A stretch of DNA of 64,000 bases, from positions 142,348 to 206,347 of the forward strand of contig CAVQHC010000017.1 in NCBI GenBank assembly GCA_963712235.1, written 5' to 3'. Source of the stretch: an uncultured delta proteobacterium. GTDB lineage: Bacteria; Myxococcota_A; Polyangia; Polyangiales; Houyiibacteriaceae. Every line of letters starts with the position of its first letter. The stretch's first letter is position 1. The position numbers and the translations under genes are program-made. The notes under the pieces were generated by a model. It had not been told where the DNA came from. It saw only the letters and a program-made list of their open reading frames with translations, and searched no databases. Shown here piece after piece: positions 19,662-41,255 of this stretch.

Positions 19662-21329
19662 ATGGCCGAACAGCAACTCGTACTCGACGACGCCTACCAC
19701 TGGGAAAGTTCGACGCCTGACCGGGTATGGATGACCCAGCCCATCGGCAATGGCGAAGTACAAACCTACACCTGGGCCGAAGCGATGGATCAGGTGAGGC
19801 GGATGGCGGCACACCTGAAGTCGCTCGACCTTCCCCCCGGGACCCACATCGGGCTCATCTCCAAGAACTGCGCGCATTTCATCCTAACGGACCTGGCGAT
19901 TTGGATGGCCGGACATGTGAGCGTCGCGCTCTATCCCACGCTCAATGCAGACACGATTCAGTATATTCTCGAGCACAGCGAGTCGAAGCTTCTCTTCGTG
20001 GGCAAGCTCGATGGCTGGGACGAAATCAAAAAGGGCATCCCCGACGACATGCCCTGCATCTCGTTTCCGCTCGCCCCCCCGAACGATTACGAGACCTGGG
20101 ATTCGATCATCGCGAAGACCGAACCGCTGCAAGGAAACCCCTCGCGCAGAGCCGACGAGCTCGCGATCATCGTCTACACCTCCGGAAGCACGGGGCGGCC
20201 CAAGGGCGTGATGCACAGCTTTGGTGCAATCGCGGCATCGGTGAAGGGAGCCGATGAGATCTTTCACTCGACCCCGCAGGACCGAATGTTGTCCTATCTT
20301 CCGCTCGCGCATGTCTTCGAGCGATTTTGCGTGGAGACGCAGGGACTGCACACCGGGATGCAGCTCTTCTTCGCGGAGTCGCTGGACACCTTCGTGGCCG
20401 ACCTGAACCGCGCACAGCCGACGATCTTCGTCTCGGTGCCGCGCTTGTGGTTGAAGTTCCAGCTCGGGATCTTTCACAAGCTCCCGCCAGAAAAGCTCTC
20501 GCGGCTCCTTCGGATCCCGCTGCTCAATCGGGTGATCAAAAAGAAGATCCTGACCGGGCTTGGCCTGCAGCACGTACGAATTGCGGCCAGTGGGTCGGCG
20601 CCGATTCCACCAGATCTGATCCAATGGTACCGCAATCTCGGGCTCGAGCTGCTCGAGGGCTACGGCATGAGCGAGGATTTCGCGTACTCCCATGCTACCT
20701 ACCCCGGCCACGGCCGCGTCGGCTACGTCGGCAGCCCGATGCCCGGAGTCGAGGTGAAAATCAGCGAAGAAGGCGAGATCCTGATCAAGTCACCCGGCAA
20801 CATGATGGGCTACTACAAGCAGCCCGAGATGACGGCCGAGTGCTACACCGCGGACGGCTACTTTCGTACCGGCGACCGCGGCGAGCGCGATGAAGAAGGC
20901 CGACTCAAGATCACCGGCCGCGTGAAAGAGCTCTTTAAGACGAGTAAGGGCAAGTACGTCGCCCCCGTCCCGATCGAGAACATCATCAACAATCACGTCC
21001 ATGTCGAAATGTGCTGCGTCACCGGGTCGGGTCATCCCCAGCCGTTTGCCCTGGTGCTCCTCGGTGAGGAGCTCCGGCCGAAGCTGAGTGACCCGAGTGT
21101 GCGTGAGCAGGTCCAAGCCGAGCTCGAGGCGCTGCTGAAGCAGGTCAACCAAGAGGTCGAGGCCTTCGAGCGGCTTCAGTTCCTGACGGTCGTCAAAGAT
21201 GCTTGGCTGATCGAAAACGGCTTTCTCACGCCGACCATGAAGATGAAGCGAGGCATGCTCGAAGACACCTACGGCCCCAGGATGGAAGAATGGTACAGCG
21301 TGGGTCAGGCGGTGGTCTGGGAGGCCTAG
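19662..21329 (+). CDS. AMP-dependent acyl-CoA ligase (long-chain fatty-acid--CoA ligase-like)
   Basis: AMP-binding motif IIVYTSGSTGRPKGVMHSF, plus YFRTGDRGERDEEGRLKITGRVKELFKTSKGKYVAP. GAGGAG RBS is present. Confidence 0.85.
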   Translation: MAEQQLVLDDAYHWESSTPDRVWMTQPIGNGEVQTYTWAEAMDQVRRMAAHLKSLDLPPGTHIGLISKNCAHFILTDLAIWMAGHVSVALYPTLNADTIQYILEHSESKLLFVGKLDGWDEIKKGIPDDMPCISFPLAPPNDYETWDSIIAKTEPLQGNPSRRADELAIIVYTSGSTGRPKGVMHSFGAIAASVKGADEIFHSTPQDRMLSYLPLAHVFERFCVETQGLHTGMQLFFAESLDTFVADLNRAQPTIFVSVPRLWLKFQLGIFHKLPPEKLSRLLRIPLLNRVIKKKILTGLGLQHVRIAASGSAPIPPDLIQWYRNLGLELLEGYGMSEDFAYSHATYPGHGRVGYVGSPMPGVEVKISEEGEILIKSPGNMMGYYKQPEMTAECYTADGYFRTGDRGERDEEGRLKITGRVKELFKTSKGKYVAPVPIENIINNHVHVEMCCVTGSGHPQPFALVLLGEELRPKLSDPSVREQVQAELEALLKQVNQEVEAFERLQFLTVVKDAWLIENGFLTPTMKMKRGMLEDTYGPRMEEWYSVGQAVVWEA

Positions 21330-24536: not shown

Positions 24537-24795
24537 TTATAACGCAAACCGGCCTGATGACGCAGCGCGCAAAATGTGCACTTCTTTCGCAAGAGAAATT
24601 CAAAGCGCATGATTTGCACTTCCGCTGGTGCCCCAGCGCATCGATCATTCGCGCCACCCAAGCAAGTCGAGAGAGATCATGGGACGTCGGGCGGGTGCAT
24701 CGTTTTGGCACAGAAGCTGCTTATCCGCAGCGTGCCCCTGCGTACCTGCAACTTGCCGCGCATATTCTGCGGGGGGGAAAACGGAAGACCTCTCG

Positions 24796-26463
24796 ATGAC
24801 TCACAGCAGTAGCCTCGACGCGGAATCGCTACGACTCGTTCTCGATTCGCTCGATGATTTCGCCAAAGCAAACCTCAGCGACGAGAAACTCCTCGAGCTC
24901 GATGAGAAGGACATCTTTCCAGAGGAGCTCGTCCGCGCGATCGGCAGCGAAGAGCTCGGAGTGCAGCTGGTGTTCATCCCCGAAGAGCACGGTGGGATGG
25001 GCGGCGGGGCCTTCGACGTGTATCGGGTCTGCGAAGCGATGGCCCGGATCGATGTCGGCCTAGCCACCGGCGTCCTGGCGACCTTTCTCGGCAGCGACCC
25101 CATCGTGTTCGGCGGGACGCCCGAGCAAAAAGAACACTGGCTGAGCCGTATCGCGGAAGAAGGTTTGCTCATGGCTTACGGGGCCACCGAACCAGCTGCC
25201 GGCAGCGACCTTGCCGCGCTCAAGACGGTGGCGGTCCCCGTCGAAAAGGATGGCAGCGTCGTTGGATACGAGATCACCGGGAACAAGCAGTGGATCTCGA
25301 ACGGCGGGTACGCCGATGTGTACACCGTGCTTGCGAAGGCACCGGGTGGTCCCAGCTGGTTTGTCGTCGAACGCGGCGCCGAGGGCTTTTCTGCGGGGAA
25401 ACCCGAGGACAAGCACGGTATCCGGCTGAGCAATACGACCGCCTTGGTTCTCGAAAACGTCTACGTCGACGCCGGTCAGCTCGTGGGGCTCGAGGAAGGC
25501 CAAGGGCTGCAGCAGGCTCAGCTGGTCTTCGGGTTCACGCGACTGATGGTGGCGGCCTTCGGGCTTGGCGCGGGCTGGGCGGCTCTCGACCGGACGATCG
25601 AATACTCGACCGAACGCATTCAAGGTGGGGCGCCGCTCTCGGAAAAGCAGGGCTACACGCACAAGCTCATCGTGCCGCATGCGGTGCGCCTGGAGGCCGC
25701 GCGAGCCTACATCGAGCAAACGGCAGAGGCCATCGACAAGGGCGGCGACGACTTGCTGAACACCGAGGGCGCGATCGCCAAATACCTCGCGAGCGAGGCG
25801 GGCAACGCCGCGGCAGACGCAGCCATTCAAGGGCACGGCGGCTACGGGTACACCAAAGAGTACATGGTCGAGAAGATCAAGCGCGACGTTCGAATCACCA
25901 CGATCTACGAGGGCACCTCCGAAATCATGGAAATGACGATCGGACGCGACCGCTGGCAGCATCACCTCAAGACCCGCGGGCAGCACTATCACGACCTCGG
26001 GCGGCGGCTCGAAGGCGTACACAGCGAGCACCCCAAGGTCGGTGCCGACATCGCGGCGCTGGCCGCACACGCCCTCGCAGAAGTCATGGAACGCGCACGC
26101 GAGAAACGTCTCACGCGCAACCAGCACGTATTGTTTCGAATCGGTGAGCTCGCCTCCTATGTCGAAGGTGCGGCGGCGTTTGCTCGACGCGCAGTCCGTG
26201 CCGAGCTCGATGAGCTCAATCCAAAGTCCCCAAGGCGATTTTCGCCGCCGGCTGTTGCGGCAATGGCGCGGGTTTTCGCGCGTGAAGCCGCGCAGCGCGT
26301 TGCCGTAGACGGCATGCGTTGGGTCATCGGCGCCGAAGCGCCGGGGAGCGCAGACGTCCCGTCGCTCGAAACGAGCGCGGGCCTGTCGAACGTTTATGCA
26401 GCCCAAGCGGGGTTGATCGAAGACATGAATCAGGTGGGGGACGCGCTTTACGAGCGCTCCTGA
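24796..26463 (+). CDS. acyl-CoA dehydrogenase family protein (555 aa, with C-terminal extension)
   Basis: Contains [37 protein letters not shown] and [14 protein letters not shown]. The ATG at 24796 ([12 protein letters not shown]...) is in frame within ORF 24628... Confidence 0.9.
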
Positions 26464-26482: not shown

Positions 26483-29400
26483 ATGCAAGATCAGGTACAT
26501 CGAGCCATAGCTGTCGTCGGGGTCGGCGCAGTACTTCCGGATGCACAGAACGCCAAGGAGCTCTGGAACAACGTTTCAACCGGGCGCTACAGCATCAGCG
26601 AAACACCCGTCGACCGTTGGGACCCGGCGCTTTATTACGATGCAGACCCAAAGGCCCCCGACAAGACCTATTCGAAGATCGGGGGCTGGGTTCGCGAGTT
26701 CAACTGGGAGCCCCTGAAGTGGAAGCTGCCGATTCCGCCGAAGGTGGCGGAGTCGATGGACCGCACGCAGAAGTGGTCGATCATGTCGGCGCGAGAGGCG
26801 CTTCTCGATTACGGCTATCCAGAGCGCCCGCTCGATGGCGATCGAACCGCGGTGATCCTCGGGAACGCCATGGCAGGCGACCAGCATTACAAGACGGCGC
26901 TTCGCATCTTTTTTCCCGAGTTCTCGCGTGAGCTCGACGGAGCGCCGAGCTTTCAAGCGCTCCCAGGGGACGTCAAAGCCGCAATCGTCGAAGAAACGAT
27001 GGGACGCATGCGGGAGCACTTTCCGACCATCACCGAGGACACGATGCCCGGCGAGCTCGCGAACATCATCGCCGGCCGTGTGGCGGCGGTCTTCAACTTT
27101 CACGGTCCCAACTTCACGGCAGATGCGGCCTGTGCGTCGGCCATGGCCGCCTTCAGCGCTGCCATCTCGGGGCTCGAAGAAGGGGACTACGACGCCGTGC
27201 TCACCGGCGGCATCGACAGCAACATGAGCGCGCCGAGCTACACGAAGTTCTGCAAGATTGGCGCGCTCTCGGCCACCGGGACGCGGCCTTACGACGAAGG
27301 CGCCGACGGTTTCGTGATGGGCGAAGGCGCGGCGGTCTTTCTTCTAAAGCGTTTGGAAGACGCCGAGGAAGCGGGCGACAAGATCTACGCCGTGGTTCGG
27401 GGAATCGGCGGGTCGAGCGACGGCAAAGGCAAGGGGATCACCGCGCCCAACCCGATCGGACAGAAGCTCGCGATCGAGCGCGCATGGGCTCATGCCGGCG
27501 AGGATTTGGCGACGGTGAGCCTGATTGAGGGCCACGGCACGTCGACGCGGGTTGGCGATGTGGTCGAGGTGCAAAGTATGGTCGACGCGTTCGCCGATGC
27601 GGGGCTGCCCAATTCGAGCGTTCCAATCGGCTCGGTCAAGTCGAACATCGGTCACCTCAAGGGAGCCGCTGGCGCCGCCGGCCTGCTCAAAGCCACCCTC
27701 GCACTGCACCACAAGCAGCTGCCCCCGAGCATCGGATTCCAGACACCCAACCCGAAGATCGGGTTCGGTCACATCCCGTTTTACGTCAACACCGAGCTCA
27801 GGCCTTGGGATGACTTCAAAGAAGTTCGGCGAGCGGGCGTCAGCGCATTCGGTTTCGGAGGGACGAATTTCCATGCCGTCCTCGAAGAGCACGTGCCTGG
27901 GAGGATTCAACGAAAGAAGCGGACCTCGGTATCGGTGCCCTCCGGCTCCTCGACGCCAACGGCGACCGGCGCCGTTGCGATGGCTGACAAGGCCCCGATG
28001 CGCGGTTCTTTGGTCCTGGGCGCCGGCTCGACTAAGGAGTTGGCGATCAAGCTCGATGCGGTGCTCGAAGACGCGAAGGCCGGGCGCGCGCCCAATCGCC
28101 AGCCGCCAGCCGCTTCGGATCTCCATGCCGCGGGAAGGCTGGCGATCGACTTCGGTGACGCAGCCGAGCTCGCCAAGAAGGCGACGAATGCCGCCAAGGG
28201 GCTTCGCGCCGACAACGCGGCGATGTGGAAGGCGCTGCGAGCGCAGGGCATCTTTTACCGAACGGGGGCCGCACCAAAAACAGCGTTCCTTTTCACGGGC
28301 CAGGGTTCGCAATACGTGAACATGCTGCGAGAGCTTCGCGAGGTGGAGCCGATCGTGGCTGACACTTTCCGAGAAGCCGACGACGTGATGAAGCCACTGC
28401 TCGGTCAGCCGCTGAGCGAAATCATCTTCGTCGATCCGAACGACAAAGCAGCGGTCGCCGAAGCGGACGAGGCGCTTCGGCAGACCGCGATCACCCAGCC
28501 GGCGGTGCTCGCAACCGACCTTGCGCTGACGCGGCTTCTGGCCGCTTATGGCACGACCCCTGACATGGTCATGGGACATAGCCTCGGAGAGTACGGTGCC
28601 TTGGTGGCGAGTGGGGCGCTCGGCTTTCGCGAGGCGCTCGAGGCGGTCAGCGCGCGCGGACGGGAGATGACCAAGGTCTCGGTCGACGACAACGGCTTGA
28701 TGGCCGCCGTCCTCGCGCCGATTGATGAGGTGCAGGCGATTGTGAGCTCGGTCGATGGATACGTGGTCATCGCCAACATCAACAGCTTCGGCCAGTCTGT
28801 GATTGGTGGTTCGACCCCGGGTGTGACGGCGGCGATTGAGGCGATCGCGAAGGCCGGCCACCAGGCTATCCCGCTCCCGGTCAGTCACGCGTTTCACACC
28901 GAGGTCGTTGCCCCAGCAAGCGGCCCGCTCAAAAAAGAGATCGCACGGCTCGGCATCGAATCGCCGAAGATTCCAATCGTCGCCAACGTCAGCGGTGAGT
29001 TCTACCCGATGGGGCCGAACGTCGCCGAAGAGATGATCGAGCTCCTCGGTCGGCAAATCGCCTCGCCGGTGCAATTCGTGAAGGGGCTCGAGACTTTGTA
29101 CGACGCGGGGGCACGGGTCTTCGTCGAAGTCGGTCCGAAGTCCGCTCTGGCGCGATTTGCCGAAGATGTGCTTGGCAGCAAGGCCGACTCCCTGTCCCTG
29201 TTCACCAACCACCCGAAGATCGGGGACGTCGCGGCCTTCAACGCAGCGCTCACCGGGCTCTATGCGAGCGGGCACGGCGCGCCCAAGAGCGAGCGCAGAT
29301 TGCAAGAGCTGAGCAGCAACGGAGCAGCGACCCGCGTGGCTGCTGCAGCGGCTCCGGCCGTGCCCCCGACGCTTACCGTTTCGGCGCGTCGGGCGCCCCA

Positions 29401-32400
29401 ACGGGCATCATCCGCCGTGGGAGGCGATCGCTATGCCCAACTCGGCCGCTTGTTTGCCGATTTCCTCGACCAAGGGATGGAGATCTATCGCGGCGGGACC
29501 GCCGTCGATTCCGGAGAGCCGGTGGTCGTCACCGGAGCGACCATCGGACTGCCCGGCGGGGAGAAGGTCTTTGCGGACGAAAACGTCGACCGGATGCTGC
29601 ACGGTCAGAGCTTCATCGACGCGATCCCGGTGGGGCTTCGTCGTGCGATGGCGGACAAGAAGATCACCCGCCTCGTGAAATCGGAAAAAGGCGGGGCGCG
29701 CTTCGAAACGATCGACTCGCCCGCCGACGTGATCAAGCTCGCCGGCCGGGCTGGCGACATCGCCTTGTCGAGCGATTTCGGCATTCCCGAGGAGCGCGCG
29801 GCCGCGATGGACTCGACGACACGAATGGCCGTTGCCGCAGGAGTGGAGGCGCTACGCGACGCGGGGATTCCGCTCGTGATGCACTACAAGACGACGACCA
29901 AGGGAACGAAGCTTCCCGACCGCTGGGGCTTACCCGCGGAGATGCAAGACGAGACCGGCGTCATCTTCGGTTCGGCGTTCCCCGGCTCCGACATGTTCAT
30001 GGGCGAGGCTCGGCGATACTACGAGAGCGAGACGCAGGAGAGACTGCTCGATGAGCTGCGCAGCTTAAGGGCGCGCATGGCAAGCAACGGCGGCGACCCG
30101 CTAGGCGCAGAAATCGACCGTCGAATCGCGGAAATCGAAAGCGACCGTCAGCGCGATCCGTACACGTTCGACCGGCGCTTCCTGTTCAAAGCGCTGTCGA
30201 TGGGCCACTCTCAGCTCGCGGAGTACATCGGCGCGCGCGGGCCGAACACCCAAATCAACTCGGCGTGTGCCAGTGGAACGCAGGCTGTGGCGCTAGCCGA
30301 GGATTGGATCATGCGCGGTCGGTGCAGGCGCGTCGTGGTCGTCACCGCGGACAACGTGACGAGCAACAATTTGATGGAATGGATCGGTGCGGGTTTCCTG
30401 GCCAGCGGCGCCGCGGCGACGGACGAGGTACTCGAGGACGCCGCCCTTCCCTTCGATCGTCGACGTCACGGCCTCATCCTTGGAATGGGCGCTTCGGGCA
30501 TGGTCATCGAAAGCGCGGACGCGGCCCGCGAACGCGGTCTGAGGCCAATCGCACAGGTGCTCGGTACGGTGACCGCCAACAGCGCCTATCACGGCAGCCG
30601 TTTGAACATCGAGCACATTCAGGGTTTGATGGAAAAGCTGGTCGCAGACTGTGAGGCGCGGCACGGCATCGATCGCGCGGCGATCGCGCCGAACACGGTA
30701 TTCGTTTCACACGAGACGTACACACCGGCACGCGGCGGTAGCGCTCAGGCGGAGATCAGCGCGCTTCGCAAGGTCTTTGGCGCCAACGCGGACAGCATCG
30801 TAATCGCAAACACGAAGGGCATGACGGGTCATGCGATGGGTGCGGGGGTGGAAGACGCGACCGCCATGAAGATTCTCGAGACGGGTTTGGTCCCGCCGGT
30901 GGCAAACTTCAAAGAGGTGGACCCGGAGCTAGGTGCGCTAAACCTCTCGAGAGGCGGGAGCTACCCCGTTCAGTATTCACTTCGACTGGGCGCTGGGTTC
31001 GGCTCCCAGATTAGCCTGTCGCTCTGCCGTTGGGTCCCGAGCCCAGACGGGCGTCGACCGGCGCCAAGGGAGCTGGGCTACACGACTCGGGTCGAGGATC
31101 GAGCGCTCTTCGAACGCTGGGTTGCGTCCGCCACCGGCTACGCCTCGCCGGAGTTGGAAGTGGTGAATCGGACCCTGCGGGTGAAGGATCAGGGTCCCTC
31201 GGCCGCAGTCGCGGTGTCAGCGTCAACGGCAGTGTCAGCGTCAGTGCCAGCGTCAGTGCCAGCGTCAGCGCCAGTGCCGGCGTCAGCGCCAGTGCCGGCG
31301 CCGGCGCCGGCCATCGACCCCGTGACGGCGAAGGTCTTGTCGATCGTCTCCGAGCAGACGGGATATCCCTCCGACATGCTCGACCTCGAGCTCGACCTCG
31401 AGGCCGACCTCGGGATCGACACCGTCAAGCAGGCGGAGACCTTTGCTGCAGTGCGCGAGGCGTACGATATCGAGCGCGAGGACAATCTCGAGCTTCGGGC
31501 GTTCCCGACGCTCGGGCACGTGGTTCAGTTCGTCCGCGACCGCCGACCAGACTTGATGGCCGCGCCATTGCCAGCGCCAGCGTCAGCGCCAGCGTCAGTG
31601 TCAGTGCCAGTGCCAGTGCCAGTGCCGGCAATCGACCCCGTGACGGCGAAGGTCTTGTCGATCGTGTCCGAGCAGACTGGGTATCCCTCCGACATGCTCG
31701 ACCTCGAGCTCGATCTCGAAGCAGACCTCGGGATCGACACCGTCAAACAAGCAGAGACCTTTGCTGCAGTGCGCGAGGCGTACGATATCGAGCGCGAGGA
31801 CAATCTCGAGCTTCGGGCGTTCCCGACCCTCGGGCACGTGGTTCAGTTCGTCCGCGACCGCCGACCAGACTTGGCGGCAGCGCCAGTGTCAGCGCCAGCG
31901 CGAGTGTCAGCGTCAGTGCCAGCGCCAGCGCAGCGACCCGGTGACCGCGAAGGTACTCGCGATCGTGTCCGAGCAGACTGGGTATCCCTCCGACATGCTC
32001 GACCTCGAGCTCGACCTCGAAGCGGACCTCGGGATCGACACCGTCAAGCAGGCCGAGACCTTTGCCGCCGTGCGCGAGGCGTACGATATCGAGCGCGAGG
32101 ACAATCTCGAGCTTCGCGACGTTCCCGACCCTCGGGCACGTGGTGCAGTTCGTCCGCGACCGCCGCCCGGATCTGGTGCCAGCGCCAGCGCCAGCGTCAG
32201 TGCCAGCGTCAGTGCCAGCGCCGGCGTCAGAAGATTTGATCACCCAGAAGGTGCTCGAAGTCGTCGCGTCGGTCACCGGCTACCCGCCCGTAATGCTCGA
32301 GCTCGACCTGGACCTCGAGGCGGACCTCGGAATCGACACGGTCAAGCAAGCCGAGACTTTTGCCGCCGTGCGCGAAGCGTATGGAATTCCTCGCGACGAC

Positions 32401-35022
32401 AAGCTCGAGCTTCGAAATTTCCCGACGCTCCATCACGTCATCGCCTGGGTGAAAGAATCCATTCCCGAGGCTGCGGCGTCGGCAGCCGCTCAGGCCGAAG
32501 CCGCCGACGCTTCACCTGCCGCAGTGGCAGCGCACGAACCGGCGGAAGGGCTGCGCCGTGTTCCCGTGGCCGTGCTCAGGCCTCCGCTATCCGCCTGCAA
32601 GCCGACCGGCGTCAATTTCGTCGAAGGGGCACGCGTCGTCGTGATGGCCGATCGGGGACCGGTCGGAAAGGCGCTGGTCAAGCAGTTGAAGAAGCTCGGC
32701 GTCGAGCTGCTCGTCGTCGACGACACACCTTCTGCGGAAGAGCTCAGTCTGAGGCTCGAAGGCTGGATGAAGGACGGTCCGATCCTCGGCGTTTACTGGC
32801 TCCCGGGGCTCGATCGAGAAGACCCAATCGCCGATCTCTCCCCGGACGACTGGACCAGCGCGGTCCAAAGGCGCGCCAAGCTCTTGTTCACGACGATGCG
32901 CACGCTTTACGAGCAGATCTCGGGGCCGGGCAGGTTCCTGATGTCGGCGACGCGCTTTGGCGGGAAGCACGGCTTCGACGAGCCTGGCGCGGTGGCGCCA
33001 CTTGGAGGCGCCGTTGGCGGCTTCACCAAGACTTACAAACGCGAGAAACCCGAGGCGACGGTCAAGGTCGTCGACTTCGAGGCGAAAGTGAAGGCAAGCA
33101 CCGTCGCCGAACGACTCATCGCGGAGACCTTGTCGGACCCCGGGGCATGCGAGCTTGGCTACACCGGAGACGAACGCTGGGCGATCACGGCATCTTTTGA
33201 AGCGGCGCCGACCTCGCGCCCGTTCGCACTCGGGCAAGACAGCGTCTTTGCGATCACTGGCGCTGCCGGGTCGATCGTGTCTGCGATTGTCCAGGACCTG
33301 GCCAAGGCGTCGGCTGGAACCTTCCATCTGCTCGACCTCACGCCCGAGCCGGATGCCGACGACCCCGACCTTCAACGCTTCGCGAGCGACCGCGATGGCC
33401 TTCAGCGTGAGCTCTTCGAGCGGCTGAAGCAGAGCGGAGAGAAGGCGACGCCGGTAGCGGTGCAACGCCTGCTCAGCGAGCTCGAGCGAAAGCACGCTGC
33501 GCTCCGGGCCATCGAATCGGTTCGCGCTGCGGGCGGCAAGGTGCACTATCATTCCGTAAATCTGCTGGATCGCGAGGCGGTCGCTGCGACGATCGAGGTC
33601 ATTCGGGAGCAGAGCGGACGTATCGATGCCCTGGTGCACGCGGCCGGGCTCGAGATCAGTCACTTCCTACCCGACAAGAAACCGTCGGAGTTCGATTTGG
33701 TCTTCGATGTTAAGGCGACCGGCTGGTATCACCTCTTGTCGTCGATCGGAGACATGCCGCTCGGCGCCGCGGTGGTCTTCAGCTCGATTGCGGGTCGATT
33801 CGGCAATGGCGGTCAAACCGATTACAGCGCCGCCAACGAGCTTCTGGCCAAGTCGGTTTCGAGCTTCCGAAACGCGCGGCCAGGCACGCGGGGCATCGTC
33901 GTCGACTGGACCGCCTGGGCAGACATCGGCATGGCATCCCGCGGATCCATCCCCAAGATGATGGAGTTGGCCGGCATCGACATGTTGAAGCCTGCGGACG
34001 GCCTTCCGGTCGTACGTACCGAGCTCGAAGCGGGCACATCCGGTGAGGTCGTGATTGGCGGCGCGCTCGGAATCCTCATGCAGGAATGGGACGAAACCGG
34101 CGGGCTCGACCCGAGGAACCTTCAAGCGGTCCGTCGAGGCCCGATGAGCACGCATCTGGTCTCGATGGGCATTCATTCCGGTCTCCAGGTCGAGACTACG
34201 CTGGACCCGCGGGAGCAGCCTTTCCTCTACGACCACAAGATCGGCGGTACGGCCGTCTTGCCGGGTGTGATGGGGCTCGAGGGCTTCGGTGAGATCAGTG
34301 AGGCGCTTTTTCCCGACTGGCACGTCCGAGCTATTGAAGGCGTCGATTTCCTCGCGCCGTTCAAGTTCTATCGGGACGAGCCCAGAACGCTAACGCTGAC
34401 CGCGCAGTTCACCACCGACGGCAACGAGCTGCTGGCGCGCTGCCGCTTGATCGGCACGCGACCGATCCTGGGTAGAGACGAGGTGAAGACCCATTTCGCC
34501 GCAACCGTCCGGCTCGCGCGCGAGCCCGTCGACAGACACAGATCGGAAGCCCCCCCTCACGCCTCCGACGCGAGCGTGGCCGACAAGGACATCTACCAGG
34601 TTTACTTTCATGGCCCGGCCTATCAGGTGTTGGACACCGCATGGCGTGACAATGGCGTGGTGGTCGGCCGAATGCGCGAGCAACTCCCCGACGATCGCCA
34701 GCCAGCGGACCTCGAAATGGTGACGGAGCCACGGCTGGTCGAGCTCTGCTTCCAGACCGCAGGTGTATGGCAGATCGGCACGACCGGCCGGATGGGACTG
34801 CCGCAACACATCGACGAGCTCGAATGCGTTCGGTCCGCCGATGCGGTCGAAGGGCGGCTGCACGCCGTGGTGAGTCCGCGGGATGGTGGAAAATCGTTCG
34901 ACGCGCATGTGACGGATGAAGCCGGCAACCTCTACGTGGTACTCCGTGGATACCAGACGGCGGAGCTCCCCGAGGACGTGGACCCAGAAAAGCGGAAGCC
35001 TCTCCGCGCGGCGATGGACTGA
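26483..35022 (+). CDS. iterative-type type I polyketide/fatty-acid megasynthase, KS-AT-KS-ACPx4-KR-DH, carrying two +1 frameshifts around ACP3
   Basis: KS1 spans 26498-27890 (Cys codon 27131 in DAACASA; His 27533 and 27653). AT spans 28284-29160 (GQGSQ; GHSLGEY, Ser codon 28580). KS2 spans 29515-31035 (INSACASG, Cys codon 30266; [20 protein letters not shown]). The ACP array spans 31316-32460. KR spans about 32610-34060 (ITGAAGSIV; Tyr codon 33823). The hot-dog DH spans about 34140-35019 ([14 protein letters not shown], His codon 34234). ORF pieces: 26483..32239, 31761.. (ACP3 body) and 32062..35022. Confidence 0.9.
31316..32460 (+). repeat. tandem array of four carrier-protein (ACP-like) coding repeats with Pro/Ala/Ser/Val linkers
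   Basis: The unit [79 protein letters not shown] is repeated with offsets of 318, 301 and 298 nt. Copies 1-3 are nearly identical in DNA. Copy 4 has diverged. Confidence 0.9.
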
Positions 35023-35028
35023 ACGAAG

Positions 35029-38000
35029 ATGGGCAATATGACCTTCACGCGAATTGCAATCGTAAACCGCGGCGAACCTGCGATGCGATTCATCATCGCC
35101 GCGCGGGAGTACACGCAGGAGCATCGCGAGGCGCTTCACACGATCGCGCTTTACACGGATCCCGACCGCCGAGCGATGTTCGTACGCGAGGCCGACGAAG
35201 CGTACGCGCTCGGCCCTGCAACCTTCGTGACCAAGGACGGCCATCGCAAGTCGAGCTACCTCGACTACGACCGCCTCGAGCGCGCCCTCATCGAAACACG
35301 TGCCGAAGCGGTTTGGCCAGGATGGGGCTTCGTGGCCGAGCACCCCAGGTTTGCAGACCTCTGCGAACGACTCGGGCTCGTCTTCATCGGGCCGACGGGG
35401 GACATGATGCGCAAGCTGGGCGACAAGATCGCCTCCAAGCAGCTCGCAGAAAAGGCGGAGGTTCCGGTCGCACCCTGGAGCGGTGGTGAGGTGGCGACGC
35501 TCGACGATGCGCGTACGCACGCGGCGCGCCTCGGCTACCCTCTGATGATCAAGGCGACCGCAGGTGGCGGAGGCCGTGGGATCCGCCGCGTACAAAGCGA
35601 GTCCGAGCTGGCTGACGCGTTTCAAAGCGCGAGATCGGAGGCCGAGAAGTCTTTCGGAGACCCTGCGGTGTTCCTAGAGCGAATGGTGACTGGGGCGCGC
35701 CACGTCGAGGTTCAGATTATCGCGGACGACGAAGGAACGACTTGGGCGCTGGGCGTGCGCGACTGTACCGTCCAACGGCGCAACCAGAAGATTCTCGAAG
35801 AGACCCCTTCGCCGGCGCTGAGCGAGGAGCAACAGACTGAGCTCGAGCAAGCCGCAATCCGGCTGACCCAAGCGATCGGCTATCGAAACGCGGGAACGGT
35901 GGAATTCCTTTATCACCAGCCGACGCGGCAGTTCTCGTTCATGGAGGTCAACGCGCGGCTGCAGGTCGAGCACCCGGTCTCGGAGATTGTCACCGGCGCC
36001 GACCTCGTGAAGCTACAGATCCACGTCGCGCGAGGCGGCCGACTGGACGCGGTACCCCCCGTCAAGCGTGGGTACGCGATCGAAGCGCGGCTGAACGCCG
36101 AGGATCCGGAAGACAACTTCGCGCCCTCGCCTGGGCTCGTCGAACAACTTCGGCTGGCGAGCGGCCCCGGCCTGCGGGTCGATACCGGCATTGCGGAAGG
36201 CGATCGAATCCCGTCCGAATTCGATTCGATGATCGCCAAGATCATCGCCCACGGGCGCACGCGTGAGGAGGCGCTCGCCCGGCTTCGGCGGGCGCTCCTC
36301 GAAAGCGAGGTCGTGATTCGCGGGGGCGCCTCCAACAAGGGCTTTCTTCTCGGCTTGGTGGACAATCCAGCGGTTCGCTCTGGCGAGGTCGATGTGGGCT
36401 GGGTCGACCGCCTCGTCGCTGAGGGGAGGCACCTGCCCCGCGAGGGAGCGGAACTCGCCCTCCTGCAGGCTGCAATTGAAACCTATGACGCAGAGCTCGA
36501 TGTGGAGCGCGCGCAGTTCTACACCGCCGCGGCGCGAGGGCGTCCGCAGGTGGAAGACACACACGGACAGGCGATGGAGCTCACCCATGCCGGACATACC
36601 TACGAGCTCACCGTCTTTCGCCTGGGCCCAGACCGCTACCGGATCGACGTCGATGCGCAGCGCATCGAAGTCGTGGTGGAACGCTTCGAAGGCGCAGAGC
36701 GTCGGCTCCGGATCGGCAATCGGCACGCGCGAATTCAGTCGGTCGACCAGGGGCTGAGTGTCCTCGTGGAGGTCGACGGTGTGCCGCACCGCATCTCTCG
36801 AGACCGTGGCGGCCTCGTCCGTGCACCATCGCCAGCAGTCGTGGTCAATGTGCTCGTTTCGGAGGGCCAAGACGTCGCGGTTGGAGATGGGCTCGTCGTC
36901 CTCGAAGCGATGAAAATGGAAATGGTCATCGGCGCGAAGTTTGCCGGCAAGGTGCGCGAGGTCATGGTGATGAACAACGTGCAGATCGCGATCGGCGCGC
37001 CGATGTTGCTCATCGAGCCGAGCGGTGGCGAAGCCGCTTCTGCGTCGGACGAGCGCTTGAGCTTTTCCACCCTCTCGGTCGAGCAGGATCAAGACTATTC
37101 GGTCTACCGGCACAATCTAATCGAGCTCAAACGCCTAATCATGGGCTTCGACGCGGACCGTGTGGAGCTTTCGCGTGAAATCGAGGATGGCAACATCGTT
37201 ACCGCAAGCGTGGCGCCCGACGATTCTGGACGCCTTGCGCTCGAAGACCAGATCCTCAACGTCTTCGTGGATCTGTGCTCTTTGTTCCGCCGGCAGTCGC
37301 GCTACGAGGACGGGTCTGAAGACTTCGGAAAACACACCGCCGAAGAGTATTTGTTCACGTTCCTCCGCGACCTCGTCGTTCGTCGTGAAGAGGAGCTCCC
37401 GGCATCGTTCGTCTCCAAGCTTCGTAGGGCCATTGGCCACTTCGGTCTGGCCGAAATTCAGCGCAACGCCGAGCTGCAAGGGGTGCTGTTTCGGATCTGC
37501 AAAGGAAACAAGCGGATCGACGAACAGGTCGCACCAGTGCTGAGCTTGCTGCAGGGCCGCCTCGATAACATCGGCACGCTTCGCGAGGCGGTTGGAGACG
37601 ACTTCCGCGAGCTCTTGTCTCGAATGATCATCGAGACTCAGGATCGCTACCCCGCCATCCATGATCTGGCACGCGAGCTGCAGTATCACTACTTCGAGCG
37701 CCCAATTCAGGAGCGCGTCGAAAAAGAGACACTAGCCAAGGTCGATCGGATTCTCGCGCAGCTAGTCGCGGACCCGCAGGGCCCGGACAGAGCCGCACGC
37801 ATCGCAGAGCTCGTCGCCGTTCCCCAACCTCTCAAGGGGTTCATGTCGCGGCGGCTGGAGCAGGCGAGCCATGACGAACGTCTGATCATGCTCGAGACCC
37901 TCGCCCGCCGATACTACAAGATGTGCGATCTGAGGGACTTCGAACTGCTCTCCGACGGCGGAATTGACATTTCCAAGTGCTGGTATGAGTACGAAGGCAA

Positions 38001-40590
38001 GAAGATTCACTTCTTCGCCACGCACGTCGCCGGCGAGCAGCTGCCCGATGCGATTTCCGAGCTGAAGCGTCACGTCGAAGCTGCTCCAGAAGCCGACGAC
38101 GTCGTCGTAGATTTCTATGTGTTGCATCGCGACCAGCTCGAGAGCCCAGACAAGACGTCAGAGGGGCTTACGCGCCTGCTCGGAACGTTCGAGCCCGCAA
38201 GACCGATCCGTCGCGTCATCGTCTCCGTAACTGGAAGTGAAACCGGGCTCGGAGCAAACGAGTTGCAGGCGTTCACGTTTCGAATGGGTGAAGATGGCTT
38301 TCGCGAGGAGCTGATTTACCGCGGCATGCACTCTATGCTGAGCAAACGTCTGCTCTTGTGGCGCCTAAAAGACCTGAGCACAGAGCGAGTCGATTCGGCA
38401 GAAGACGTGAATCTCTATCGTGTGACCGGAAAGGACGAGCGTCTGATTTGCCTCGCCGAGGTGCGCGATCTGACGCCGGTCCGTGACGCCTCGGGCCGCG
38501 TAGTCGCCCTCCCCAACCTCGAGCGAACGCTTTCGAAGTGCCTAATTGCCATTCGACGCGAGCAGAGCACGAGAACCTCGGGAAGGCGCTTTCAATGGAA
38601 CCGAGTTCACCTCTTCCTCTGGCCGCCGCTGGACCTGAGCCAAGAAGAGATCAACGGCATCATTCACAAGCTCGCACCGGAGACGACCGGACTTGGACTC
38701 GAGCGAATCGTCGTCCAGGGGACCATTCGCAACCCAGCAAGCGGCAAGCTCGAGGAGAAGCTGCTCGACGTGTCGAATCGTGGCCGCCAGGGACTCAGCG
38801 TCCGGCTTCGCGACCTTCCAACCCATCCGATGCGGCCCCGCAGCGCGTACGAGCAAAACGTCGTCCGGTTGAGCCAGCGGGGTTTGATGCACCCGTACGA
38901 GATCATCTCCATGCTCACGCCTGGAGAGGACAGTGACGTTCAGTCGGATTTCCCGCATGGCGAGTTTCGCGAGCTCGACCTCGACGAGGCCAATCAGCTC
39001 GTCCCCGTGGAAAGGCCCCCTGGAAACAACAGCGCCAACATCATCGTCGGCCTGCTAACCAGCTTCACCGACAAGTATCCCGAAGGAATGACGCGCGTTG
39101 CGCTCTTGGGAGACCCGAGTCGAGGCATGGGCGCTCTCGCCGAACCCGAGTGCCGCCGCATCATTGCCGGCCTCGACCTCGCCGAGCAGATGCGGGTACC
39201 CTTGGAATGGTACGCAGTCTCCGCGGGCGCCAAGATTTCCATGGAAAGCGGTACGGAGAACATGGACTGGATCTCGGCGGTCTTGCGACGACTGATCGAG
39301 TTCACGCAGGCAGGGTCCGAGGTGAACGTCCTGGTCTGCGGCATCAACGTTGGCGCCCAGCCGTACTGGAACGCCGAGGCCACGATGCTCATGCACACCA
39401 AGGGCATCCTCATCATGTGCCCGGGCAGTGCGATGGTGCTCACCGGCAAGCAGGCGCTCGACTACTCGGGGGGCGTATCGGCCGAAGACAACACCGGAAT
39501 CGGCGGATACGATCGAATCATGGGGCCCAATGGTCAGGCGCAATACGCTGCGCGCGACCTCGCGGACGGCTGCCACATTCTTCTTCGTCACTACGACCAC
39601 AGCTACGTCATGCCCGGCGAACGTTTTCCGCGGCGCGCCGCGACGAAGGATGCAATCGACCGGGACGTTTGCGATTCGCCGCACGGCCATATCGGTGCTT
39701 CGACCTTTGCGACCGTGGGCGAGGTCTTCAATCCAATGACCAATCCAGGCCGAAAACGCCCCTTCGACATTCGCAAGGTAATGCGTGCCGCGACGGACCA
39801 GGACCACGACGTGCTCGAGCGATGGTATGGGATGCGCGACGCGGAGACCGCCGTGGTCTGGGACGCTCACATCGGCGGGTTTCCAGTCTGTCTGATTGGA
39901 CTCGAATCACAGCCCTTGTCCCGCCTCGGCTTCGTCCCGGCGGATGGGCCCGCAGTTTGGACGGCGGGAACCTTGTTCCCGATGTCTTCGAAGAAGGTGG
40001 CCCGAGCAATCAACGCAGCAAGCAACAACCGGCCCGTGGTCGTACTGGCGAACTTGTCCGGCTTTGACGGCTCTCCAGAGTCGTTGAGGCAGCTTCAGCT
40101 CGAGTACGGGGCCGAGATTGGCCGCGCCGTGGTCAACTTCAAGGGGCCGATGGTGTTCTTGGTGATCTCACGATACCACGGTGGGGCCTTCGTTGTGTTC
40201 TCCACCAAGTTGAATCCGTCGTTGGAAGTGTCGGCGCTCGAGCATACCTATGCCTCGGTCATCGGCGGCGCGCCGGCAGCGGCGGTGGTGTTTGCCGGTT
40301 CCGTGCGCAAGCGAACCCTCTCGGACGAGCGGATCATGGCGCTGCAGCAGGAGCTCGATCGGGCTGTCGGTGCCGAACGCGTGGCGCTCCGGGATCGCCT
40401 CGGCAAAATGGAGAAGGTCGTGCACTCGGAGAAGCTGCGCGAGGTGGCCGAGGAATTCGACAGCGTCCACAGTGTGCATCGAGCGCAAGAGGTCGGCTCC
40501 GTCCACCGAATCATTCCTGCCAGCACTCTGCGGCCGTACTTGGTGGACGCGATCGAGCGCGGGATTCAACGCGAGCAGTCTCAGGGATGA
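35029..40590 (+). CDS. single-polypeptide biotin-dependent acyl-CoA carboxylase (BC - BCCP - central region - CT), 1853 aa
   Basis: The N-terminal biotin carboxylase/ATP-grasp domain reads FTRIAIVNRGEPAMRFI...GYPLMIKATAGGGGRGIR...MEVNARLQVEHPV. The biotinyl motif is VVLEAMKMEMV (Lys codon 36913). The C-terminal carboxyltransferase reads ...GMGALAEPECRRI...VCGINVGAQPYWNAEATM...GFDGSPESLRQLQLEYGAEI... Confidence 0.9.
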   Translation: MGNMTFTRIAIVNRGEPAMRFIIAAREYTQEHREALHTIALYTDPDRRAMFVREADEAYALGPATFVTKDGHRKSSYLDYDRLERALIETRAEAVWPGWGFVAEHPRFADLCERLGLVFIGPTGDMMRKLGDKIASKQLAEKAEVPVAPWSGGEVATLDDARTHAARLGYPLMIKATAGGGGRGIRRVQSESELADAFQSARSEAEKSFGDPAVFLERMVTGARHVEVQIIADDEGTTWALGVRDCTVQRRNQKILEETPSPALSEEQQTELEQAAIRLTQAIGYRNAGTVEFLYHQPTRQFSFMEVNARLQVEHPVSEIVTGADLVKLQIHVARGGRLDAVPPVKRGYAIEARLNAEDPEDNFAPSPGLVEQLRLASGPGLRVDTGIAEGDRIPSEFDSMIAKIIAHGRTREEALARLRRALLESEVVIRGGASNKGFLLGLVDNPAVRSGEVDVGWVDRLVAEGRHLPREGAELALLQAAIETYDAELDVERAQFYTAAARGRPQVEDTHGQAMELTHAGHTYELTVFRLGPDRYRIDVDAQRIEVVVERFEGAERRLRIGNRHARIQSVDQGLSVLVEVDGVPHRISRDRGGLVRAPSPAVVVNVLVSEGQDVAVGDGLVVLEAMKMEMVIGAKFAGKVREVMVMNNVQIAIGAPMLLIEPSGGEAASASDERLSFSTLSVEQDQDYSVYRHNLIELKRLIMGFDADRVELSREIEDGNIVTASVAPDDSGRLALEDQILNVFVDLCSLFRRQSRYEDGSEDFGKHTAEEYLFTFLRDLVVRREEELPASFVSKLRRAIGHFGLAEIQRNAELQGVLFRICKGNKRIDEQVAPVLSLLQGRLDNIGTLREAVGDDFRELLSRMIIETQDRYPAIHDLARELQYHYFERPIQERVEKETLAKVDRILAQLVADPQGPDRAARIAELVAVPQPLKGFMSRRLEQASHDERLIMLETLARRYYKMCDLRDFELLSDGGIDISKCWYEYEGKKIHFFATHVAGEQLPDAISELKRHVEAAPEADDVVVDFYVLHRDQLESPDKTSEGLTRLLGTFEPARPIRRVIVSVTGSETGLGANELQAFTFRMGEDGFREELIYRGMHSMLSKRLLLWRLKDLSTERVDSAEDVNLYRVTGKDERLICLAEVRDLTPVRDASGRVVALPNLERTLSKCLIAIRREQSTRTSGRRFQWNRVHLFLWPPLDLSQEEINGIIHKLAPETTGLGLERIVVQGTIRNPASGKLEEKLLDVSNRGRQGLSVRLRDLPTHPMRPRSAYEQNVVRLSQRGLMHPYEIISMLTPGEDSDVQSDFPHGEFRELDLDEANQLVPVERPPGNNSANIIVGLLTSFTDKYPEGMTRVALLGDPSRGMGALAEPECRRIIAGLDLAEQMRVPLEWYAVSAGAKISMESGTENMDWISAVLRRLIEFTQAGSEVNVLVCGINVGAQPYWNAEATMLMHTKGILIMCPGSAMVLTGKQALDYSGGVSAEDNTGIGGYDRIMGPNGQAQYAARDLADGCHILLRHYDHSYVMPGERFPRRAATKDAIDRDVCDSPHGHIGASTFATVGEVFNPMTNPGRKRPFDIRKVMRAATDQDHDVLERWYGMRDAETAVVWDAHIGGFPVCLIGLESQPLSRLGFVPADGPAVWTAGTLFPMSSKKVARAINAASNNRPVVVLANLSGFDGSPESLRQLQLEYGAEIGRAVVNFKGPMVFLVISRYHGGAFVVFSTKLNPSLEVSALEHTYASVIGGAPAAAVVFAGSVRKRTLSDERIMALQQELDRAVGAERVALRDRLGKMEKVVHSEKLREVAEEFDSVHSVHRAQEVGSVHRIIPASTLRPYLVDAIERGIQREQSQG

Positions 40591-41255
40591 CGATACGCTG
40601 GAGGCTCCTTGCTGCATCCGAGCTGCCACAAGGGGACGGCTGGCTCATAGCAGAAGAGCGGAAGGTCCTAGCGGGACTCCGGTTTCAAAAGAGGCGCGCT
40701 GACTGGCGACTCGGACGGTTGGTAGCGAAGCGTACCGTGTCTTCAGTCGTCGGGGTCGATGACCTAAATCGGATTCACATCCTCGCGGCAAAAGACGGCG
40801 CCCCCGAAGCGTGGATCGACGGACAAAGGCTCGACTCGGAAATCTCGATCAGCCATCGCAACGGGCTGGCCGCGTGCGCGATTGCGCCGGGCGCTGGCGT
40901 CGGCTGCGACCTGGAGGCCGTCGAGCCGCGGAGCTCACGCTTCGTGAATGACTTCTTCACCGAGCGCGAACGCAGGGTGGTTGGGACGACGGCCGAGGCT
41001 CATCGAGATCGTGTCGTTGCCTTGACCTGGAGCGCCAAGGAAAGCGCACTGAAGGTTTTGCGGGTGGGTCTGCGGCGGGACACGCGTAGCGTCGAAGTGG
41101 TACTCGACCATGTCGAAGCGGCTGAAGCCGGCTGGCATCCATTGCGCGCCGCTGTCAGGCCAGAGGGCCAAAACTTTCGAGGTTGGTGGCGCCAAGAAGC
41201 CGGGATCGTGTTGACGATCATGAGCGACGAGGAAACCCAATCCATCGCCAACTAG
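40587..41255 (+). CDS. Sfp-type 4'-phosphopantetheinyl transferase
   Basis: Contains ISISHRNGLAACA, GVGCDLE and WSAKESALKVL motifs. The start overlaps the carboxylase stop (ATGA at 40587-40590). Confidence 0.85.
   Translation: MTIRWRLLAASELPQGDGWLIAEERKVLAGLRFQKRRADWRLGRLVAKRTVSSVVGVDDLNRIHILAAKDGAPEAWIDGQRLDSEISISHRNGLAACAIAPGAGVGCDLEAVEPRSSRFVNDFFTERERRVVGTTAEAHRDRVVALTWSAKESALKVLRVGLRRDTRSVEVVLDHVEAAEAGWHPLRAAVRPEGQNFRGWWRQEAGIVLTIMSDEETQSIAN

Follow-up and report, generated by a model that had tools for sequence, protein, structure and literature searches.

A eukaryote-type single-chain acetyl-CoA carboxylase within a conserved polyketide synthase cassette of a Polyangiales-like myxobacterium, and its probable role in malonyl-CoA supply

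The window analysed here, a stretch of 64,000 nucleotides from an uncultured delta proteobacterium of the Polyangiales (assembly GCA_963712235.1, contig CAVQHC010000017.1, positions 142,348 to 206,347 of the forward strand), encodes a single-chain, eukaryote-type acetyl/propionyl-CoA carboxylase of 1853 aa (35029..40590, + strand). We call it ACC, for acetyl-CoA carboxylase. It lies between a PfaA-like polyketide synthase (PKS) and a 4'-phosphopantetheinyl transferase (PPTase), with an acyl-CoA dehydrogenase (ACAD) upstream of the PKS, and the order PKS, ACC, PPTase is conserved in genomes of several phyla. We think it probable that ACC makes malonyl-CoA from acetyl-CoA, ATP and bicarbonate for the synthase expressed with it, from a source that does not depend on the regulated housekeeping ACC. 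This reading of ACC as a dedicated supplier of malonyl-CoA is favoured over others because the carboxyltransferase is of the eukaryotic ACC type, the acyltransferase of the PKS has the HAFH motif and the PKS is an iterative, PfaA-like one.

Domain structure and family of the carboxylase

The ACC reading frame opens with an ATG and runs uninterrupted for 1853 aa, and its translation can be aligned with the Saccharopolyspora indica protein P0313 from end to end at 51% identity. A first-pass annotation, made by reading the sequence without database searches, had described a fusion of biotin carboxylase (BC), biotinyl carrier domain (BCCP), a central region of about 600 aa and carboxyltransferase (CT) in the eukaryote-like order, and the reading frame, the Pfam domains and the profile searches all bear this out. 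The BC domain occupies residues 6-460 (35044..36408, +; PF00289, Biotin_carb_N; PF02786, CPSase_L_D2; PF02785, Biotin_carb_C), carries the glycine-rich loop GGGGRG (179-184) and the motif EVNARLQVEHP (306-316), and matches biotin carboxylases in the PDB with E about 1e-114 to 1e-90. It is followed by the BCCP domain at residues 597-661 (36817..37011, +; PF00364, Biotin_lipoyl), where EAMKME is found at 626-631; direct reading of the DNA places the codon of the biotinyl-lysine K629, AAA, at 36913-36915, exactly where it had been annotated. The CT domain covers about residues 1308-1853 (38950..40587, +), with the Pfam match PF01039 (Carboxyl_trans) at 1365-1843. Its start near residue 1308 comes from an alignment to the yeast CT and gives the non-catalytic central domain between BCCP and CT (37012..38949, +) a length of about 640 aa. 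Four family motifs can be read in the CT, namely GINVGAQ (1438-1444), NAEATMLMHT (1448-1457), ANLSGFDG (1674-1681) and SRYHGGAF (1714-1721), and these are identical in relatives that are linked to a PKS and in those that stand alone. ACC must be regarded as a constrained and functional gene, since its dN/dS against three relatives is 0.07-0.08, which means strong purifying selection.

The family of the enzyme was determined with profiles of the CT and of the central region. Searched against the PDB, the CT profile (A1) finds 20 eukaryotic ACC CT sequences at E 1e-32 to 1e-23, whereas the CTs of beta subunits (acyl-CoA carboxylase beta, 12S, GCC, PCC, AccD5 and AccD6) appear only at E >= 7e-9, more than 14 orders of magnitude behind; a search with the single CT sequence gives the same order. 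AccD5, AccD6 and PCC beta subunits are weak matches, with E about 1e-5 or worse, and the single-chain long-chain acyl-CoA carboxylase (LCC) gives no match to the CT profile in the PDB. The central region had no significant PDB match as a single sequence, but a profile of 18 central-region sequences (A2) matches eukaryotic ACC central domains and nothing else in the PDB (E 5e-16 to 1e-11; yeast 5i6e, 5csa and 5csk, Chaetomium 5i6h and human 6g2d). Many homologues of the window ACC also show a match to PF08326, ACC_central. Sequence profiles thus settle the homology of the domains, and because both the CT and the central region match eukaryotic ACC, the enzyme has every feature by which a eukaryote-type "group V" ACC, the SACE_4237 family, can be recognised from sequence. 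A canonical multi-subunit ACC, with AccA/AccD, AccB and AccC, was considered and rejected, as all activities lie in one reading frame and an AccD-type CT (2f9i) matches the CT profile with E = 1.3.

By sequence comparison, the fused single-chain ACC belongs to a large bacterial family with an architecture that was already known. Searched at full length, ACC matches more than 100 proteins of 1830-1920 aa at 100% coverage, the closest being from metagenome-assembled genomes (MAGs) of Polyangiales (71-96% identity), followed at about 57-59% by Haliangium, Terriglobia, Bryobacteraceae and Limnocylindrales. The central and CT portion alone matches 802 representatives of 50%-identity clusters at E <= 1e-30, and when one genome per species was scanned, relatives turned up in at least 585 species. 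With these numbers the family can not be called rare, and the rarity that the first-pass annotation implied for single-chain ACCs in bacteria was overstated, all the more as they were described in bacteria in 2019.

The founder of the family, SACE_4237 of Saccharopolyspora erythraea, is a protein of about 200 kDa with the order BC-BCCP-central-CT, which is a homodimer when active (Livieri et al. 2019, PMC6491548). Its kcat/Km is 0.85 for acetyl-CoA and 0.52 for propionyl-CoA, it has no activity on palmitoyl-CoA, its Km is lower for propionyl-CoA than for acetyl-CoA and it adds to methylmalonyl-CoA in vivo; the gene is essential and complements an E. coli accB(ts) mutant (PMC6491548). Our comparison was made at genus level, through named Saccharopolyspora orthologues: P0313, P0297 and P0309, from three species, share about 80% identity with L080, a Pseudonocardiaceae enzyme that stands alone. 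Both SACE_4237 and the window enzyme are single chains of about 200 kDa with the same domain order and a central domain homologous to that of eukaryotic ACC. Compared with the stand-alone actinomycete clade, the window ACC is identical at about 61% of positions in BC, 32% in the central domain and 68% in CT, and the CT motifs GINVGAQPYWNAEATMLMHT, ANLSGFDGSPES, SRYHGGA(F/Y)VVFS and ASVIGGAPAAAVVF are common to both groups. The CT identity of about 68% and the unchanged motifs suggest that the window enzyme, too, would accept acetyl-CoA and propionyl-CoA but not palmitoyl-CoA. The two differ in their surroundings and their place in the tree, for SACE_4237 is an essential housekeeping ACC and genes of its type stand alone, with neither PKS nor PPTase as neighbours in 9 of 9 loci of cultured actinomycetes, while the window ACC sits within a PKS-ACC-PPTase operon and in a different, PKS-linked part of the tree.

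The domain order is also that of the eukaryotic cytosolic ACCs (yeast Acc1, human ACC1/2), whose central domain and CT are the best and almost the sole PDB matches of those regions. The eukaryotic enzymes are longer, about 2200-2400 aa against 1853 aa, their CTs are 27-30% identical to that of the window, and unlike them the window ACC is encoded by a bacterial gene in an operon. The regulatory phosphorylation loops of eukaryotic ACC are not expected in the window protein.

The operon and its conservation

The four genes are co-directional and tightly packed. The first is the ACAD gene (24628..26463, +; Pfam Acyl-CoA_dh_N/M/1/2), whose true start may lie 3' of the annotated GTG, homologues being about 555 aa long. 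After 19 nt follows the PfaA-like iterative type I PKS (26483..35022, +; Pfam and NCBIfam TIGR02813), and its stop at 35020-35022 precedes the ATG of ACC by 6 nt. The last gene encodes an Sfp/HetI-type PPTase (40587..41255, +; PF01648, PF17837). The stop codon of ACC, TGA at 40588-40590, and the ATG of the PPTase at 40587 overlap by 4 nt as ATGA, as can be read directly in the DNA, and the translational coupling of the two that had been annotated would be expected from this. The annotated position of ACC between a PKS and its PPTase is confirmed by gene order and spacing. The ACAD, on the other hand, is not immediately upstream of ACC as first described; the part of the PKS that contains the acyl carrier protein (ACP), ketoreductase (KR) and dehydratase (DH) domains lies there, and the ACAD comes before the PKS. 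In the cassette PPTases the catalytic motifs are those of an ordinary Sfp-type enzyme, GCDLE and WSAKESALK being kept in 56 sequences.

Upstream, the cassette is separated from GreA by a gap of 285 nt, and downstream it meets convergent genes, an ECF sigma factor and a Ser/Thr kinase, that also follow the cassette in locus L001. A scan of 23.5-42.5 kb found no sigma-70-like promoter (there were fewer matches than in shuffled sequence) and terminator-like matches at chance level, so the boundaries of the operon rest on gene spacing and strand only. Rfam gave no match in the window.

We scored 85 loci with the proteins of the window, and counted the neighbours over the loci that could be assessed. 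The gene next to ACC on the upstream side is the KR-DH part of the PKS in at least 54 of 74 loci. On the downstream side it is the PPTase in at least 59 of 81, including six loci of Actinomycetota type that have it on the opposite strand (L043, L064, L066, L067, L069 and L071). Fifteen of 71 loci have neither neighbour. Wherever the flank of a locus extends far enough, as in L001, L002 and L005, an ACAD is found before the PKS, and the complete order ACAD-PKS-ACC-PPTase is seen on a 1.95-Mb contig (84% identity) and on contigs of 3.1 Mb and 2.2 Mb (57%). A Limnocylindrales MAG has PKS-ACC-PPTase followed by a GMC oxidoreductase, and a Haliangium MAG has ACC and PPTase and no adjacent PKS. The carriers include Myxococcota, many Acidobacteriota, Chloroflexota, Dormibacteraeota, Acidimicrobiia and other uncultured Actinomycetota, a Mycobacterium sp., Rhodothermales, KSB1 and a Xanthomonadales MAG.

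Several variants of the cassette were seen. In a Polyangiaceae MAG (L020, 3313-11695) the order is PKS-PPTase-ACC instead of PKS-ACC-PPTase. In two Dormibacteraeota loci (L056 and L059) the upstream PKS matches the ketosynthase-acyltransferase and middle parts, a KR-DH match was not found before ACC, and the synthase may be a shortened or divergent version. The cassettes of Acidobacteriota and Chloroflexota are often extended, 3' of the PPTase, by an alpha/beta-hydrolase (Abhydrolase_3) and a GMC-family oxidoreductase (L002, L004, L005, L013, L021, L024, L025, L027, L031, L034 and others), which are absent from the window and are candidate release or tailoring enzymes. The Acidobacteriaceae MAG MFD05705.bin.3.155 has two contigs (L037 and L038) with a full PKS-ACC-PPTase cassette on each, and is either a case of a duplicated cassette or a mixed bin.

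The synthase and its carrier domains

The PKS has the order ketosynthase (KS), malonyl-type acyltransferase (AT), a second KS-like domain, four tandem ACPs, KR and DH. The N-terminal half scores 726 bits with the PfaA model TIGR02813 and the KR region 227 bits. The first KS is catalytically complete, with DAACAS, HGTST and NIGH, and the AT, which resembles FabD, shows the malonyl signature of GHSLG and HAFH. No thioesterase (TE) domain was found in the PKS with Pfam. The second KS-like domain (29300-31000, PKS residues ~1000-1500) keeps the active-site cysteine (INSACASG) and both histidine motifs; judged by these residues, the domain that was described in 2011 as a chain-length factor (CLF) may instead be a second active ketosynthase.

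The frame of the PKS is broken in the window. A tblastn search with the intact homologue from L001, one open reading frame of 2748 aa, located two +1 frame changes near 31930 and 32124, about 195 nt apart and within the near-identical ACP repeats, which split the PKS of about 2850 aa into the reading frames 26483..32239 and about 32122..35022. Because they fall inside near-identical tandem repeats they look like sequence errors, and we regard an assembly or consensus error as the probable cause and pseudogenisation as a possible one.

The four ACP repeats are marked by the motif DLG[IV]DTVKQAE at nt 31409, 31727, 32028 and 32326 (+), and all of them have a threonine at the position of the phosphopantetheine-accepting serine. 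The register was confirmed by alignment to the carrier domains of PigH and to type II ACP structures, in which "dlgvdS" and "dSl" stand against "dlgidT". The threonine is found in 192 of 192 ACP repeats from about 60 homologous PKSs of several phyla, and no serine-type carrier motif is present in the intact PKSs of L001, L002 and L005. We did not find any precedent for threonine-type carrier domains in the literature searched. If the invariant threonine is the real attachment site, it would be an unusual variant of carrier-protein chemistry, and one may speculate that it explains why the cassette always comes with a PPTase of its own.

Phylogeny and probable mobility

In a neighbour-joining tree of 67 full-length sequences, from a sample that is biased towards relatives of the query, the window ACC groups with Polyangiales MAGs and then with Haliangium and Polyangiaceae, Rhodothermales and a large clade of Acidobacteriota, essentially all of them linked to a PKS or PPTase. 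One clade unites the ACCs that stand alone in cultured actinomycetes (Nocardia, Nonomuraea, Asanoa, Actinoplanes and Qaidamihabitans). We rooted a tree of the CT with yeast, mammalian and Chaetomium CT fragments taken from PDB alignments (27-30% identical to the window CT), and there the bacterial sequences keep closely together in a single group. The stand-alone clade is monophyletic in 100 of 100 bootstraps, is sister to all other bacterial sequences in 1 of 100, and is nested among PKS-linked Actinomycetota, although this rooting is by neighbour-joining with a long outgroup branch and the same biased sample. The topology suggests, as a lead, that linkage to a PKS preceded the stand-alone state in the family as sampled.

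The tree does not follow taxonomy, with Limnocylindrales placed inside Acidobacteriota and Rhodothermales beside myxobacteria, and together with the two copies in one MAG this fits an accessory and transferable module. Its accessory character is further supported by the Mycobacterium and Xanthomonadales carriers and by the related clusters without ACC that are treated below. Gammaproteobacteria rely on AccABCD for their housekeeping activity, and mycobacteria on AccA3/AccD6 (PMC5311964). Since the lineages of the Mycobacterium and Xanthomonadales carriers have, from what is known of them at genus level, a multi-subunit housekeeping ACC, some carriers should hold another ACC. E. coli AccA and AccD queries found no accA or accD in roughly 1.7 Mb of flanking sequence, which means little because only about 20 kb per genome was covered.

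A more far-reaching idea can be drawn from this, which we put forward tentatively and rate as rather unlikely. The eukaryote-type single-chain ACC in bacteria would be primarily a part of a self-contained, mobile ACAD-PKS-ACC-PPTase lipid module, with its own malonyl-CoA supply and possibly a threonine-directed activation of carriers, insulated from primary metabolism, and the stand-alone ACC of the SACE_4237 type would be a secondary derivative. The reasons for it are that the stand-alone clade is monophyletic in all bootstraps and nested among PKS-linked lineages, and that all ACP repeats are of the threonine type with no serine-type carrier in the intact PKSs.

Proposed role and alternative explanations

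In the proposed mechanism, BC would carboxylate the biotin on K629, and BCCP would swing the carboxybiotin to CT, which would transfer the carboxyl group to acetyl-CoA, and probably also to propionyl-CoA, with malonyl-CoA as the product from acetyl-CoA. The central domain would serve, like its eukaryotic counterpart, as a scaffold without catalytic function, and ACC is presumably active as a homodimer. As the third gene of a tight and apparently horizontally mobile ACAD/PKS/ACC/PPTase cassette in a Polyangiales-like myxobacterium, ACC would supply the synthase translated with it, whose AT is of the malonyl-specific type, with a private pool of malonyl-CoA that a housekeeping ACC does not control. 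Dedicated malonyl-CoA supply was also the simplest explanation in the first-pass annotation, and it is now the best supported, by the conserved order of PKS, ACC and PPTase, the class of the CT and the GHSLG...HAFH signature of the AT. Some observations weigh against it. The closest characterised relative, SACE_4237, is an essential housekeeping enzyme, so that the family is capable of that role; the function of the PKS-linked members is derived from sequence comparison; the PKS frame is broken twice in the window, so that either the cassette is defective here or the repeats contain sequence errors; and the trees are made by neighbour-joining from a sample biased to relatives of the query.

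The main rival explanation is that the enzyme is the primary, housekeeping ACC of the cell, like SACE_4237, and that its operon just happens to contain a lipid synthase which uses malonyl-CoA as well. The enzyme belongs to the same family as that essential ACC, it is under strong purifying selection, and there are no other ACC genes in the 64-kb window, but a window of this size says almost nothing on the remaining genome. The first-pass annotation had reasoned that firm clustering of the CT with housekeeping ACC, in a genome having no other ACC, would make this the primary enzyme of metabolism, and half of this has come true, as the CT does cluster with enzymes that serve as housekeeping ACCs elsewhere, the eukaryotic ones among them. 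The window enzyme falls, however, in the PKS-linked part of the tree and outside the stand-alone actinomycete clade, and the cassette is patchy, taxonomically incongruent and present twice in one MAG. It is also found in Mycobacterium and Gammaproteobacteria, which would have an ACC of their own, and in the 2011 survey of Type R clusters (see below) four of five genomes had no ACC in the cluster. We therefore consider a housekeeping role unlikely, although it is the alternative that has to be taken most seriously.

Another possibility is that propionyl-CoA or some other short acyl-CoA is the main substrate, and that methylmalonyl-CoA or a related branched extender is delivered to the PKS. The lower Km of SACE_4237 for propionyl-CoA, and CT motifs identical to those of that clade, would agree with this. 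The only AT of the PKS has, however, the malonyl-specific HAFH and resembles FabD, and synthases of the PfaA type are well known to take malonyl units, which makes a branched extender improbable.

Slightly less credit still can be given to decay of the cassette, with the PKS as a pseudogene and ACC as a remnant that has lost its original partner. This is what the two +1 frame changes in the ACP repeats would suggest, but their short distance and their position in near-identical repeats are typical of assembly and consensus errors, the homologue in L001 is intact, and in the window the KR-DH part, ACC with its low dN/dS, and the PPTase are all intact.

Carboxylation of a long-chain acyl-CoA, with the PKS then using the resulting alkylmalonyl unit in a Claisen condensation like that of mycolate synthesis, was raised as a speculative alternative in the first-pass annotation and found no support, for beside the AMP-binding ligase and ACAD nearby and a sub-threshold match of the N-terminal half of the PKS to Pks13 there stand the missing LCC match, the weak AccD5, AccD6 and PCC matches, the palmitoyl-CoA inactivity of SACE_4237, a Pks13 score (model NF040607) of 390 bits where the cut-off is 2100 and PfaA reaches 726, the malonyl-type AT, KR, DH and tandem ACPs of a PKS without TE, and a domain order that differs from that reported for LCC, and we regard it as very improbable.

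The ligase (19662..21329) that had been brought into that argument is real, as a Pfam match to the AMP-binding family confirms. Between it and the cassette lie the genes of a FAD monooxygenase, a beta-propeller protein and GreA. Homologues of the ligase occur only sporadically near other cassettes, and for these reasons we have set it aside as a part of the cassette.

Relation to known systems

The closest description in the literature is that of the "Type R" secondary-lipid cluster, which consists of one PfaA homologue with the order KS, malonyl-CoA acyltransferase (MAT), CLF, three to six ACPs and KR, and a downstream PPTase (Shulse & Allen 2011, PMC3098273). It was reported from Koribacter, Solibacter, Elusimicrobium and Roseiflexus, with a product that was unknown in 2011, and the exceptional genomes without a complete fatty acid synthase II (FAS II) do not include those with Type R (PMC3098273). 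In Koribacter versatilis Ellin345 a gene for "part of the ACC complex" was noted between the PfaA homologue and the PPTase, and this gene was absent from the other four of the five clusters (PMC3098273). The PKS of the window shows the same domain order with a DH in addition and a "CLF" that keeps its cysteine, and the PPTase lies downstream with ACC in between, so by architecture and gene order the cassette matches the Type R cluster. The likeness is greatest to the Koribacter version, with the same PfaA-like PKS, intervening ACC and PPTase, and a Korobacter MAG (L047) shares the order. The difference is that ACC was seen in 2011 as an exception among five genomes, whereas the ACC described here is a whole enzyme in one chain, and dozens of genomes show the arrangement as the rule, with an ACAD upstream. 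In the literature searched we found no later characterisation of the Type R/ACC cassette and nothing on the Koribacter acc genes. The association of PKS and ACC has thus been noticed once before, in Koribacter in 2011, and its breadth and the complete, single-chain nature of the carboxylase are new to the literature searched.

The logic of extender supply is shared with carboxylases encoded in other clusters, such as those with CT subunits of the PrmP3/SACE_0026 type (Livieri et al., PMC6491548), but these are multi-subunit enzymes with CTs of group IV type, and the window carboxylase is one eukaryote-type polypeptide. LCC is a single-chain biotin-dependent carboxylase as well, and the AccD4/Pks13/FadD32 system shares the idea of a carboxylase near a PKS and a ligase. 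LCC, the subject of Tran et al. in 2015, is reportedly about 120 kDa in size and ordered BC-CT-BCCP, whereas the window enzyme is ordered BC-BCCP-central-CT. Livieri et al. placed LCC in group III and not in group V (PMC6491548). The window CT is not of the LCC/AccD4 type, its best matches being eukaryotic ACC CTs at 1e-32, and the PKS, with its KR, DH, tandem ACPs and malonyl AT, differs from the Pks13-type condensase, which is ordered ACP-KS-AT-ACP-TE.

ACC adds one more member to a family with a characterised founder, and the single-chain architecture is no discovery. We find the case moderately interesting for its broad PKS-linked context and the odd carrier domains next to it, as the ACAD-PKS-ACC-PPTase cassette recurs in abundant but poorly studied soil phyla (Acidobacteriota, Myxococcota, Dormibacteraeota, Chloroflexota and uncultured Actinomycetota). 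That a PKS has a whole ACC to itself strongly hints at a lipid product made at high flux, and the cassette would be a convenient, self-sufficient unit for heterologous expression. The phyla in which it occurs also make the origin of eukaryote-type ACC a broader question than in 2019, when an actinobacterial source was proposed.

Other genes in the window

Two further reading frames, both outside the cassette, deserve mention. One, on the minus strand at 17499..19502 and adjoining the gene of the acyl-CoA ligase, encodes 667 aa with a coding-type GC content at third codon positions (GC3) of 0.80, and has no Pfam match at E <= 1e-4. The other, at 7000..8157 (+), encodes a protein of 385 aa in the ERG4/ERG24 sterol reductase family (Pfam E = 2e-122), which is a eukaryote-like enzyme of the sterol pathway in a window of myxobacterial type.

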